From: Candidatus Woesearchaeota archaeon
GTDB lineage: Archaea; Nanobdellota; Nanobdellia; Pacearchaeales; GW2011-AR1
DNA: 64,000 nucleotides
Assembly (NCBI GenBank): GCA_964514585.1
Contig: CAZETU010000006.1
Coordinates: 1-64,000, forward strand
Reading direction: 5' to 3'
The stretch's first letter is position 1, and the number at the start of each line of letters is the position of its first letter. Under the pieces are notes generated by a model. The model saw nothing but the letters and a program-made list of their open reading frames with translations. It did not search any database and was not told where the DNA came from. This document shows, one piece after another, positions 17,876 to 32,834 of this stretch. The position numbers and the translations under genes are program-made.

Positions 17876-17956
17876 GCCCACGTCGCATAACGGTATTGCA
17901 CAAGACTGGAACTCTTGACCCTTCGGGGTGCCCAGGTTCGACTCCTGGTGTGGGCG
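17876..17956 (+). tRNA. tRNA-Ser(GGA)
   Basis: Acceptor GCCCACG/TGTGGGC, anticodon stem CAAGA/TCTTG with loop CT-GGA-AC (17908-17910), variable arm ACCC-TTCG-GGGT, T-arm CCAGG-TTCGACT-CCTGG, discriminator G; no encoded CCA. Confidence 0.95.
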
Positions 17957-18000
17957 TTTATTCTAATTTACTTAGATTGAATTGGTGTGGTGATAGCTAG

Positions 18001-19212
18001 ATGCGTAAACTAGATAAATCTGGATTATTTTTATTTGACATGGGTATTTTTAAATTTTTTAGAAATAGGAAAGCTATTTCGTCAGAAGTGAAAGTTGAGG
18101 ATATTAGTTTTAGCGATATTGAAGACTGGATTAAGAAAAAGGTAGAAATACTTTTGCGAAATGAGACAGAGACGCTTAGGAAAGCTGAGGATAAATTGAA
18201 GGAATTTTATATTTCTGTTGAATCTAAGCTGGAAGGGTTGGAGAAAATTGATCTTAAATCTAAGAAAGAACACGAGCGGACGAAAATTTTGGTTAGACAG
18301 GGTTTGAATAATTATGTTAATTCGGTTCGTGTTTTATTGAGAGACTTGAATGGACTCGATAAGAACAATTTGGAAAATTTTGCTCGGGAACTTAATAAGA
18401 TGTTCATGCATTTTGAAAAGACTAGTGCTGTATTTTATGGACGGGCTACTTATTTGATTGGGGATGAGATGGCAGCTGTTCGGAATGAAATTCGAATTTT
18501 TTATAATGGAATGCTTAAGGAGATTGGTGAATCGTTGATTAATGATTTGAAAAGGACTGATAAGATTAAATTAAAACTTGAGAAGATTAATAATAATAAT
18601 TTTATGGAAATTGAGAAAGGGATTATGGTGAGGAATGAGAAAATTGATGAGGCTATGAATAAAGAAAAGGGATTGAGGGGTGAGATTGAGGAAATTTTGA
18701 ATAGTTCGGAACATGCTTTGAGATTAAAGGTTAGAGAGAATATTGAAAAGTTTGAGGTTGGGTTAGATGGGGAAGTCGGTCGGTTGAAGGAACTCATTGA
18801 TTTTAAAAAATTAACAACCCTTACTCATTCAAACGAAAGGGAACTTAAGACTGTTAAAGATTATAGGGCGCATTTTGTTTCAGAATTTTTTGAAGATAAT
18901 GGAGAAAGATTGCTTGCTTTATTAGTGAGTTGCAATATGAAAAGTTCTGAAATTAATAATCAGGTTGATTTGATTAAGAAAAAAAGACTTGAGTTAGATG
19001 AGAAACGTAAGAAAGTTGGAGTTGATTATACCGTCGTTAAATTGAAGGAGATTGACGGAACTGTGAAAGAACGAGAAATTATTGAGTTGGAGAATATCAA
19101 AGAGGATCGTCGTTTGGAGGATTTAAAATTGAAGATGAAGGGGCTAAAGAATGAGGTTATTGAATTAGTTGAAGAGTTTGGTGGAATTAAGATCGTTTCA
19201 ATACCAAGCTGA
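18001..19212 (+). CDS. Hypothetical long coiled-coil protein
   Basis: 403-aa K/E/L-rich helical ORF; the start may be the internal MGIFKFF. Confidence 0.7.
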   Translation: MRKLDKSGLFLFDMGIFKFFRNRKAISSEVKVEDISFSDIEDWIKKKVEILLRNETETLRKAEDKLKEFYISVESKLEGLEKIDLKSKKEHERTKILVRQGLNNYVNSVRVLLRDLNGLDKNNLENFARELNKMFMHFEKTSAVFYGRATYLIGDEMAAVRNEIRIFYNGMLKEIGESLINDLKRTDKIKLKLEKINNNNFMEIEKGIMVRNEKIDEAMNKEKGLRGEIEEILNSSEHALRLKVRENIEKFEVGLDGEVGRLKELIDFKKLTTLTHSNERELKTVKDYRAHFVSEFFEDNGERLLALLVSCNMKSSEINNQVDLIKKKRLELDEKRKKVGVDYTVVKLKEIDGTVKEREIIELENIKEDRRLEDLKLKMKGLKNEVIELVEEFGGIKIVSIPS

Positions 19213-19215
19213 TTT

Positions 19216-20028
19216 TTATTTGAAACTTTTACTTATTCCTTCTTTCCAGAATGATGGGAGCGGGTTTGCTATGAATCCTCTGAACTTGCTTGAATAAATG
19301 TGAGTTATTCCTTTATGTTCTTTGAATTTTTCAAAATGTTCGTTTGTTGATTCGTAAATTTTTTGGATTATTTTTCTTTCGAATTCTTTTTGTAGAAGTG
19401 AGGAGGGTTTTAGCGCTAGGAAGTCGGCTTGTCTTAGAATGTTTACTTCGAGGTTTGAGGAGTTTTGTGAAATAAATATTATGCTGATGTTTTTGTGTCG
19501 CGCTACCATTATTAATTGGCTTAGTAGTTTGTTTGCGTTGCTCATTGAACTTCTTGAATTGAACAGGACTCCTCCTTCGTCAATTAAGACCATTGAGTTG
19601 TTTTTGATTTTTTCTATGTCTGAGACGACGTTTATCCATGAGGGCATTTCTTCTTCTTTGAATCCTATTGCGAAACATTCTTTTTTGTGTCTTGAGTGGA
19701 AATTTTCTAGAAATTTTATTCCGAATGCGGTTTTACCTGATCCTCTTGCTCCTAAGATTATTCCTATTTGACTGTCGGATTTTGAAACGTGGTCTATCCA
19801 CTTGAAGTAGTCGCCTTCTATTATATGGATGATTTTGAATTCTTCGTGTTTTGGTTTAATGGCATTTCTTTTTACTTTTACCTTTTCTACCTTGCTTTTT
19901 TCTGATATTTTTTTACCGAGTTTGTATGAACCTTTGACGTAATAGTATGGTAGTTTTACTATGAAAAGTAGGCTTTTGCCTAGATATTTTAGAAATTTTG
20001 AGTCTTCTTTTTTCTTCTTTTTTGCCAT
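19216..20028 (-). CDS. P-loop ATPase (FtsK/HerA/A32-like or Zot-like)
   Basis: Walker A GARGSGKT, Walker B VLIDEGG, ARHKNISIIFISQ arginine-finger/Gln motif. Confidence 0.75.
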   Translation of the reverse strand: MAKKKKKEDSKFLKYLGKSLLFIVKLPYYYVKGSYKLGKKISEKSKVEKVKVKRNAIKPKHEEFKIIHIIEGDYFKWIDHVSKSDSQIGIILGARGSGKTAFGIKFLENFHSRHKKECFAIGFKEEEMPSWINVVSDIEKIKNNSMVLIDEGGVLFNSRSSMSNANKLLSQLIMVARHKNISIIFISQNSSNLEVNILRQADFLALKPSSLLQKEFERKIIQKIYESTNEHFEKFKEHKGITHIYSSKFRGFIANPLPSFWKEGISKSFK

Positions 20029-20134
20029 ACTTAAGTTAATGTTGGTTTGGATTATAAATTTATGTTTACATTTTGATGTAGTTAGATTTAAAATAGTTAG
20101 ATTTGTTAAGTTTTAGTAAGCCGCATCGTATTGG

Positions 20135-20215
20135 GCCCACATCGTATAATGGTATTGCACCGGTCTAGAAAACCGGGCCTGAAAGGGCATCCCCGTTCGA
20201 TTCGGGGTGTGGGCG
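20135..20215 (+). tRNA. tRNA-Ser(AGA), A34 anticodon
   Basis: Acceptor GCCCACA/TGTGGGC, anticodon stem CCGGT/ACCGG with loop CT-AGA-AA (20167-20169), variable arm GCCT-GAAA-GGGC, T-arm CCCCG-TTCGATT-CGGGG, discriminator G. Confidence 0.9.
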
Positions 20216-20289: not shown

Positions 20290-20454
20290 ATGAATAAAGA
20301 AAATTTAGAACTGGCTGAAGAGCATGTCAAGTTAGCTGGAGAGCTTGTGACGAAAGAAGCGCAAGAATCCGACGGCGATGAGAAGAAGATTTTGACTGAT
20401 GCTGCTTTCTCGCTTGAAAAGGCTGAGGCTGATTTAGAAGAGAGTACCGATTAG
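20290..20454 (+). CDS. Small acidic helical protein (54 aa; not in ORF track)
   Basis: MNKENLELAEEHVKLAGELVTKEAQESDGDEKKILTDAAFSLEKAEADLEESTD; TTTATATA about 22 nt upstream. Confidence 0.6.
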   Translation: MNKENLELAEEHVKLAGELVTKEAQESDGDEKKILTDAAFSLEKAEADLEESTD

Positions 20455-30305: not shown

Positions 30306-32834
30306 ATGAAAACAAACTTAATAATTTTAAGTTTATTAGTGAGTGTTTTAATGACTAGTGTTGTTAGCGCTGATGTTTTATTTGAAGACAACTTTAACGA
30401 CGGTGTTGTTTTAGACGACGGATGGGATGCAGATTATTTTGAAACTAATGATGACGGAACTCCTTCTGTAGATGTTCATGCTATCGATGATTCGTGGCAT
30501 GGTTCGGAATATGTTTACGATGGTTATTCTGTTAGAATTGAGGACGATGTTGCTGTTTACCACACAGTTGAAACTTTCGGGTACGAAGATATTGAGTTAT
30601 CTTATTGTGCTAGAATTACTTCGGACAATGGTGATGTCTTAAGGATTGGTTGGAAAGAGGCCCCTATTGGGACCATAACTCCAAGTAGTTCGTACTGGAC
30701 TAACAATTGGAATGAAGTAGAATCAACCGTTGAAGATGACGCTTATCGATGTGTTGAGTTTAACCTTGGGTCAAACGCAGAAGACACAGAGATTATTATT
30801 GCTTTTTTCATCGATGATGGGGAAGGAGATAATGGTTTATTTGATAATGTTAAGGTAGCTGGTGATGAAATTGTTGACTCTTGTAGTGATTGCGATGTTG
30901 AAATCGTTAATCCTGAAGAAGGCATTTTTTATGGTGCCGTTAATGGCGATCTTTGGATCGGTTGGACACCAAGTGGAGATGATTGCGGTAGCGAATGGGA
31001 TGTTTATTATGGTGATTGGGACGGACAAGAATGTGTTTGGACTGATTATCTAGGAGAAACTCATCTTGAGACTGAATTGCCTTGGGATATTAGCTTTACT
31101 AATGAAGGAGAATATTGTGTTAAGGTTGAAGGAGAATGTTGCGATGATGCGACTGAAGGTCCTTTTACTATTGACAATATTGATCCTATTCCTGATGCTA
31201 ATGGGGAAACCTGTTGGTGTGATGATGAATTCTATTGTCCTGGACCACAAGATTGTGTTTCAGAGTGCTGTGACTTACAGTGTGACTATGATCTTTATAC
31301 TTGTTATGAAGGTGATATGATAACACTTGATGGTAGCGGCTCTTATGACCCTGGGATGTTCCCTAGCGGAATTGTTTCGTGGGACTGGTATGTAGATGGT
31401 TCATACGCTGGAGAAGGTGAAACTTTGCCTTATCTTTGTGAAGATGGAACTCAAAATGTACCTGTCGAGTTAGTTGTTACTGATTCTGTTGGAAATACTG
31501 GAACTGATGGTGATTCTAGCATTGATGTTATCAATGTTGCTCCTGTTTGTGAAGGTATTGATGCTGTTGGCGATGTTCCATTAGTTAATGGAGTTGCTGA
31601 AGTTACTTTTACTGGAAGTGCTAGTGATGTGCCTGCAGATATGCCTAAATTAGAATTCAATTGGGATTTTGATGATGGTAATACTGCAACGGATGAGAAT
31701 CCGGTAACGCACGTTTATGATGCTGAAGGTACATATACTGTAACTTTGACTGTTGACGATACTGACGGAGGCATGGATACTTGTGAGCACGTGATTGAGG
31801 TTATCGACCCTGAACAATTAATTGATCAGGAGGTAGCTGCATATTACCCATTGCAAGTTGATTTCGGCGATGACGCTGGAGACCATTGGAGATCTTTCGA
31901 GACTGGTTTGACTGGAATGGGCTTTCATAGCTGTGAGGTTATGATGGGTCCAGAGAGTGACAATCTATTATCAAAATCTTTTGATGATGGAGAGTGTCGA
32001 GTTAGATGGGATAATGATAGTCCGCCACCATGGGGATTAAGAGAAAATCCAACTAACGATGAGCAAGGAGATCACTTCGTTCTTATTAGAGTTTTCAACG
32101 GAACTGATGTTGATTACTTTTCTTTTAACGTAATGGTTTATACTTGGATAATCGATTTGGAAGCAGGATGGAATTTAGTTTCTATTCCGTATGTTCCAAT
32201 GGATTCTAACATTAACGATGCTGATATCGGTGTTTCTCAAATAAAGGACGAGTTGGCTTCTATTTGGTCTTATGAGTACGACGCTAACGGGGACGTAAGT
32301 TCTTGGAAGTGTAGGAAAACTACGGCTGGAGGCGCATGGTCTTCAACATTCTGTGCTGACACAGATACAAAGTTGGATACTATTGTTCCTGGTAGAGGAT
32401 ACTGGTTGAATATGGATGAACCTGCTCAGCTTAAGGGGTTCGGTACTCAAATTGCACAAGGAGAAGGTCCTGGTATACCACCAGAGATTACTGTTCCAAC
32501 TAACAGTTGGGCTTTGATCGGAAGGTACGGTATTCTTGGACACGATGGTCCTTTTGCAGGAGAAACTCCATGGGATGCAGGTGCTATTCCTAAGCATGTC
32601 GCACTAGAGAGTTTGACAAAGTTGGATAATGAATTGCACGTTTTCGATGTTACTGAAGACGCGCATTTGGATGAGGTTTATCGACTATTCAATAATCAGG
32701 GTTACTGGTTATGGGTAGAAGACGAAGCATTGAACAATGCTGGAAGTGAATCTTATGCACCTTTGGACGAATACTACACTGAAGACTTAAGTTGTCATGA
32801 CCAATTATGTGTTAAGCCAATGCCTTTTGCATAA
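30306..32834 (+). CDS. Large secreted acidic surface protein with PKD domain(s) and C-terminal WNLVSIP domain
   Basis: Signal peptide; FNWDFDDG...VTHVY..EGTYTVTLTVDD (PKD); GWNLVSIP...PGRGYWL...QGYWL; no TM anchor. Confidence 0.85.
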   Translation: MKTNLIILSLLVSVLMTSVVSADVLFEDNFNDGVVLDDGWDADYFETNDDGTPSVDVHAIDDSWHGSEYVYDGYSVRIEDDVAVYHTVETFGYEDIELSYCARITSDNGDVLRIGWKEAPIGTITPSSSYWTNNWNEVESTVEDDAYRCVEFNLGSNAEDTEIIIAFFIDDGEGDNGLFDNVKVAGDEIVDSCSDCDVEIVNPEEGIFYGAVNGDLWIGWTPSGDDCGSEWDVYYGDWDGQECVWTDYLGETHLETELPWDISFTNEGEYCVKVEGECCDDATEGPFTIDNIDPIPDANGETCWCDDEFYCPGPQDCVSECCDLQCDYDLYTCYEGDMITLDGSGSYDPGMFPSGIVSWDWYVDGSYAGEGETLPYLCEDGTQNVPVELVVTDSVGNTGTDGDSSIDVINVAPVCEGIDAVGDVPLVNGVAEVTFTGSASDVPADMPKLEFNWDFDDGNTATDENPVTHVYDAEGTYTVTLTVDDTDGGMDTCEHVIEVIDPEQLIDQEVAAYYPLQVDFGDDAGDHWRSFETGLTGMGFHSCEVMMGPESDNLLSKSFDDGECRVRWDNDSPPPWGLRENPTNDEQGDHFVLIRVFNGTDVDYFSFNVMVYTWIIDLEAGWNLVSIPYVPMDSNINDADIGVSQIKDELASIWSYEYDANGDVSSWKCRKTTAGGAWSSTFCADTDTKLDTIVPGRGYWLNMDEPAQLKGFGTQIAQGEGPGIPPEITVPTNSWALIGRYGILGHDGPFAGETPWDAGAIPKHVALESLTKLDNELHVFDVTEDAHLDEVYRLFNNQGYWLWVEDEALNNAGSESYAPLDEYYTEDLSCHDQLCVKPMPFA

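Follow-up and report, generated by a model that had tools for sequence, protein, structure and literature searches.

A well-formed class II tRNA-Ser with adenosine at the wobble position (A34, anticodon AGA) is encoded at 20135-20215 on the forward strand of the window, by which we mean the whole stretch of 64,000 nucleotides that was analysed (contig C6 of the genome). We conclude that this gene is probably chromosomal, vertically inherited and functional, that its product probably reads mainly UCU, and that A34 is most likely unmodified; bare adenosine seems considerably more plausible than inosine at this position. The first-pass annotation had pointed out that archaea generally lack ANN tRNAs together with the TadA/ADAT enzymes, and reviews state the same (PMC11066159; bioRxiv 10.64898/2026.05.15.725136). 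Archaea are described as having no A34 tRNA genes (PMC11066159), GtRNAdb holds 3 ANN anticodons among 10,517 archaeal tRNAs, and genomes of 60-70% AT are where natural ANN tRNAs are concentrated (bioRxiv 10.64898/2026.05.15.725136).

The tRNA-Ser(AGA) gene and its surroundings

ARAGORN detected two tRNA genes in the window, both on the forward strand: Ser(gga) at 17876-17956 and Ser(aga) at 20135-20215. With the Rfam tRNA model (RF00005) the AGA gene scores 47 bits (gathering score 29, E 5.6e-9, model positions 1-71) and the GGA gene 53.9 bits. A run over the 64 kb at the gathering score listed the GGA gene only and missed the AGA gene, which looks like a loss in the speed filter, since local and whole-genome runs both give 47 bits. 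The minimum free energy fold of the AGA gene is a cloverleaf with an acceptor stem of 7 bp, a D stem of 3 bp, an anticodon stem of 5 bp with the 7-nt loop CUAGAAA, a variable arm made of a 4-bp stem and a 4-nt loop, a T stem of 5 bp and G73; no CCA is encoded. The GGA gene also folds into a cloverleaf with a 7-nt anticodon loop. Read from the sequence and the fold, the anticodon loop C32-U33-A34-G35-A36-A37-A38 occupies 20165-20171, with the anticodon AGA at 20167-20169 and A34 at base 20167. The gene has the features of a class II tRNA-Ser: in the 7-nt loop position 33 is U and position 37 a purine, and its acceptor stem and D arm are common to Ser CGA, UGA, GCU and GGA of the same genome, which also encodes SerRS (G000:C1:339769-341022; 411 bits). 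The clean cloverleaf with the loop CTAGAAA noted at first reading is thus borne out by ARAGORN, by Rfam and by the fold, and 23 orthologues with covariation, described below, support the same call.

There is a candidate TATA-like promoter box, TTTAAAAT, at 20087-20094 (forward strand), 41-48 nt upstream of the AGA gene, and in most orthologues a TTTAAAAA-type box is found about 25-35 nt upstream. Immediately before the gene, at 20120-20134 on the same strand, 15 nt (gccgcatcgtattgg) duplicate part of the tRNA's 5' end. Similar copies, comprising the acceptor strand and the D arm, precede the orthologues in the genomes G063, G004, G019 and G069, and in some species a hairpin-like stretch follows the copy. 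Just downstream of the tRNA (20292-20453, forward strand) lies a 53-codon ORF with many Glu, Lys and Ala codons. The Rfam model of the C/D-box RNA sR2 gave a weak match at 20343-20401 (E 6), which was rejected as a guide RNA because it falls inside this ORF.

The genome has 1.04 Mb in 18 contigs, with 37% GC and an estimated completeness of 89.65%, and contains a full-length archaeal SSU rRNA (1316 bits) and several intron-bearing tRNAs. Five Ser tRNAs (CGA, UGA, GCU, GGA and AGA) are distributed over three contigs (C1, C2 and C6) and are built on one compact scaffold, with the acceptor stem GCCCACA, G73 and a 12-nt variable arm. With U8-C9, a 3-bp D stem, a 9-nt D loop and this short variable arm, the scaffold is unusually compact for class II. 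Ser(GGA) is the tandem partner of the AGA gene, as it is in many species of the genus, and its coexistence with AGA, already remarked on in the first-pass annotation, is confirmed. Contrary to the suggestion made there, AGA does not stand in for missing UGA and CGA isoacceptors: both Ser(UGA) and Ser(CGA) are encoded, here and in a near-complete relative.

The AGA and GGA genes are identical in 56 of 81 columns. Their acceptor stems are the same but for one pair, and most of the D arm and G73 are also the same; the differences lie in the anticodon, variable and T stems, which, as the alignment of both genes and their folds agree with the earlier reading, stay paired in both. Mean identity of the AGA gene is higher to UGA (81%) and CGA (75%) than to GGA (72%), and in a FastTree phylogeny AGA groups with CGA (support 0.83), with GGA as a clade of its own. 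This grouping is tentative because the sequences are short; all the same, we take AGA to be an old paralogue, not a recent G34A mutant of its neighbor. A second ANN tRNA, tRNA-Leu(AAG), is encoded in this genome (G000:C1:115820-115905) and is widespread among the 49 species, most of which have it, G070 included; no Leu(GAG) on the Leu(AAG) scaffold was seen across the genus. A tRNA-Thr(agt) predicted by ARAGORN at C2:157748 was rejected as a third ANN tRNA, having an 8-nt loop and lying within an odd tRNA-like cluster. This cluster (G000:C2:154922-159008), in which ARAGORN also predicts a Cys(gca), is characterized by anticodon loops of 8-9 nt or longer.

The two tRNA genes of the window are separated by a segment of 2.2 kb (17957-20134), which harbors a 403-aa ORF on the forward strand (18001-19212) with no Pfam or PHROGs family and, on the reverse strand (19216-20028), a gene for a 270-aa P-loop ATPase with Zot / KaiC / A32-like matches in Pfam and PHROGs. 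In G013 and G015 an orthologue of the ATPase (81% and 68% identity, respectively), there without the other ORF, occupies the corresponding position ahead of Ser(AGA). In contigs of related strains from other runs 17957 is joined to 20135, with 38 nt between the tRNA genes. No att-like direct repeats bounding the segment were found, and the spot looks like an insertion hot spot.

Conservation of the gene across the genus

A pattern search anchored on the D arm and the anticodon loop was carried out in 49 species of the genus, and the version of the loop with CTAGAA was found in 25-27 of them, very often 0.1-5 kb from Ser(GGA). Nine of the genomes have a completeness of 90% or more; AGA is present in five of these (G013, G017, G036, G069 and G070) and was not found in the other four (G010, G012, G067 and G071). 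In an alignment of 23 orthologues, loop positions 32-37 (CUAGAA) are invariant, 99.4% of stem cells are paired, and both sides have changed in 10 of the 24 pairs. None of 500 shuffles reached the observed pairing and covariation, and partner columns that had been slid were only 28-49% paired. The invariant loop and covarying stems of this alignment indicate that selection has acted on the tRNA and on its anticodon too, which upholds the earlier proposal of a functional gene.

Among public genome records, no more than 22 contain the exact anticodon arm. They are MAGs from different studies, each labelled Woesearchaeota, Pacearchaeota or Nanoarchaeota, and no other taxon among these records carries it; the organism is therefore a DPANN archaeon. 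A scan of the order (401 genomes, 153 genera) found AGA on the same scaffold nowhere but in this genus and in a single genome from a sister genus; the scan is tied to the scaffold, and genera with a different Ser D arm fall outside its reach.

Two other readings were weighed. One puts A34 down to faulty assembly or sequencing, or to a mutation private to one genome, and nothing was found in its favor. Contigs from four other public runs, all salt-lake metagenomes containing this DNA, span 20167 and agree on A, with no variant there; the only differences within the tRNA are A>C at 20171 (position 38) and three variable-loop bases, which are strain or species variants. Since the same anticodon also recurs in so many species and in MAGs of independent origin, this reading is already refuted. 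The other sees in the gene a tRNA copy that is decaying or does not decode, such as the relic of a mobile element that inserted beside Ser(GGA), kept only as an integration target or processing signal. The segment with the Zot/A32-like ATPase, absent from related strains, the partial copy of the 5' end just upstream and the non-decoding tRNA look-alikes elsewhere in the genome could all be taken in its favor. However, the gene is built on the Ser scaffold of the host itself, and its anticodon and loop are constant across 23 species whose stems covary. Many species have it in tandem with GGA and with no insert between, and in five species, G070 among them, no other A/G34 tRNA was found for the Ser UCN codons. 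We therefore consider a relic very improbable.

Unmodified adenosine or inosine at position 34

In this genome, 89.65% complete, no match at E<=1 was found to the CDA-fold families that include TadA and ADAT2 (PF00383 and PF14437), so that the profile search proposed in the first-pass annotation came out negative, and PF02137 (ADAT1/ADAR) likewise gave no match at E<=1. A match to PF00962 (adenosine deaminase) with 10 bits and E 0.1 was taken as chance. A six-frame scan of the genome for the zinc motif H/CxE...PCxxC gave no genuine site; a single H/CxE...SCxxC match at 30750 of the window, inside an 842-aa stop-to-stop open frame, was also attributed to chance. Searching this genome by tblastn with the deaminases of relatives returned no match. 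The genome being incomplete, a deaminase could sit in its missing tenth.

Two kinds of PF00383 proteins are present elsewhere in the genus: a fusion of a kinase and a dCMP deaminase of about 350 aa, and a protein of about 150 aa found in 14 of the 49 species. Against the TadA model the small proteins score 50-85 bits, where the cut-off is 150, and no genome of the genus reaches it. Most of them align over their full length with guanosine/guanine deaminases (7dbf, 1wkq; 112-148 bits), and with TadA at most at 88 bits and over the N-terminal 100 residues only. By sequence similarity, then, the small deaminases of the relatives resemble the guanine/guanosine deaminase type (GuaD/GSDA) and not TadA. 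The type found in G002 scores 93 bits to guanine deaminase versus 88 bits to TadA, and its assignment is ambiguous. Its gene (locus L047:590-2705) lies between those of a DeoC-family aldolase and a PfkB-family kinase, in what looks like a nucleoside-salvage cluster. About 15 AGA-bearing species lack the small deaminase and some species without AGA have it, so it is no general requirement for AGA.

Inosine systems normally make the G34 isoacceptor of the same box redundant, and A34 and G34 are normally mutually exclusive. Here Ser(GGA) is encoded 2.2 kb upstream of the AGA gene, and the two coexist in most AGA-bearing species. The exceptions are G006, G017, G035, G070 and G072, genomes 83-92% complete in which Ser(GGA) was not found by a pattern allowing three mismatches or by BLAST. 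These species are very AT-rich, and AGA is left as their only A/G34 reader of UCN; their local GC is among the lowest of the genus, a figure that comes from just 0.6-6 kb per genome and is a hint only. One of them, G070, was rebuilt near-complete (676 kb, with one contig of 635 kb, 26.5% GC and 38 tRNAs). Its Ser set comprises AGA, UGA, CGA and GCU without GGA, and its Leu set AAG, UAG, UAA and CAA. The Pro, Ala and Arg-CGN boxes of G070 have U34 tRNAs only, so in each of them one U34 tRNA must read all four codons. The UGA isoacceptor is always kept.

Codon usage fits AT pressure. In 632 long ORFs of this genome UCU, the commonest Ser codon, was counted 5098 times versus 1180 for UCC (4.3x), CUU exceeds CUC by 2.3:1, and 38% of codons end in U; in G070 the ratio of UCU to UCC is 12:1. 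Usage does not separate A34 from I34, because in G070 codons ending in C are just as rare where G34 serves the box (ACC, GUC) as where A34 does (UCC, CUC). Nor does codon bias alone explain the switch in the Ser and Leu boxes, because more U-biased boxes keep G34: the Val box (GUU 59%) has a stronger U bias, yet its G34 is retained.

We suggest that the AGA gene is transcribed from its own AT-rich promoter and that tRNA-Ser(AGA) would be charged with serine and read UCU mainly through a Watson-Crick A34:U pair, while Ser(GGA), Ser(UGA) and Ser(CGA) would take care of UCC, UCA and UCG. Where AT content is highest in the genus and GGA seems to have been lost, AGA, UGA and CGA may cover the UCN box, with U34 taking the remaining codons. 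A drift to A34 in the whole lineage under AT pressure would fit these data, because Leu(AAG) likewise took the place of Leu(GAG). That A34 most likely stays unmodified is argued by the lack of any TadA/ADAT-type match in the genome, by the G34 partner that shares the box and would normally be redundant under inosine, and by an engineered Ser-tRNA(AGA) that works unmodified in E. coli (bioRxiv 10.64898/2026.05.15.725136).

The main alternative is a functional tRNA whose A34 is converted to inosine by an enzyme not recognized as a tRNA deaminase, in which case Ser(IGA) would read UCU, UCC and UCA. Candidates would be a CDA-fold protein of the GuaD-like kind that has come to act on tRNA, or the enzyme behind m1I57 in archaea, a deaminase that to our knowledge has yet to be identified. 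Inosine gains weight from precedent, since nearly all known A34 tRNAs become I34 (PMC11066159), and from the common superfamily of TadA and the small deaminases, which score 50-85 bits against the TadA model. The five AGA-bearing species without detected GGA point the same way: four of them (G006, G017, G035 and G070) carry a small GuaD-like CDA-fold deaminase, a pattern that would also fit inosine formation in those species but is just a hint, because they are kin. Against this, neither a CDA-fold protein, nor ADAR/ADAT1, nor an adenosine deaminase was found in the genome under study. The small deaminase is missing from many AGA-bearing species and present in AGA-less ones, and it is closer to guanine/guanosine deaminases than to TadA, with one type in a nucleoside-salvage context. 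GGA stands beside AGA in this genome, and UGA is never given up. We therefore regard inosine as unlikely. Somewhat less likely still is a more specific proposal, in which the wobble inosine of this genus would come from an enzyme that has no kinship with TadA/ADAT or was recruited independently from elsewhere, such as the GuaD-like deaminase or the one responsible for m1I57; if true, this would mean an independent origin of I34 decoding in Archaea.

Comparison with known decoding systems

In reviews, the lack of ANN anticodons and of the enzymes converting A34 to inosine is treated as a defining feature of archaeal decoding, and the near-universal avoidance of unmodified A34 is read as ancient purifying selection. 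Here clear purifying selection maintains both Ser(AGA) and Leu(AAG) in a genus of archaea in which no tRNA deaminase is recognizable. If A34 is bare, this would be a natural case of unmodified wobble adenosine in more than one box, and would show that AT pressure can overturn the rule; if it is inosine, archaea would have an undiscovered I34 enzyme. No published report of such A34 tRNAs in DPANN was found in the searchable literature on wobble and inosine decoding in that group.

The tRNA of the same anticodon, amino acid and class (II) is the cytoplasmic tRNA-Ser(AGA) of eukaryotes. There AGA is converted to IGA by ADAT2/ADAT3, and eukaryotes have no Ser(GGA) gene. Unlike in eukaryotes, a homologue of ADAT or TadA was not found here, and the genome carries GGA along with AGA.

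The closest parallel for a bare adenosine comes from Mollicutes, in which tRNA-Thr(AGU) and tRNA-Arg(ACG) have unmodified A34 after the loss of TadA (PMC3711424), and likewise from some mitochondrial tRNAs. As in those systems, A34 serves a four-codon box in a small AT-rich genome with a strong bias to U-ending codons, TadA was not found, and U34 tRNAs alone serve several other boxes (in G070). The differences are that the organism is an archaeon and the box is Ser UCN, that A34 arose in a lineage with no TadA in its past instead of being left bare by the loss of that enzyme, and that it coexists with G34, U34 and C34 isoacceptors in most species of the genus. AT-rich Lactobacillales also have ANN tRNAs (Leu-AAG and Thr-AGU), which are modified by TadA where tested (bioRxiv 10.64898/2026.05.15.725136; PMC13249217). 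Both groups show ANN anticodons conserved at the level of the genus, in four-codon boxes and at 60-70% AT, with Leu(AAG) the commonest; however, 88% of those bacteria encode TadA, whereas the archaeal genus has no clear TadA orthologue.

The serX-AGA tRNA engineered in E. coli by changing GGA to AGA is, like the gene described here, a Ser tRNA with AGA in its native scaffold. It is expressed and tolerated, stays unmodified, and compensates the loss of GGA, functionally replacing the GGA tRNA (bioRxiv 10.64898/2026.05.15.725136). While serX-AGA is a laboratory construct, the Ser(AGA) gene of this archaeon is natural and has been kept across its genus.
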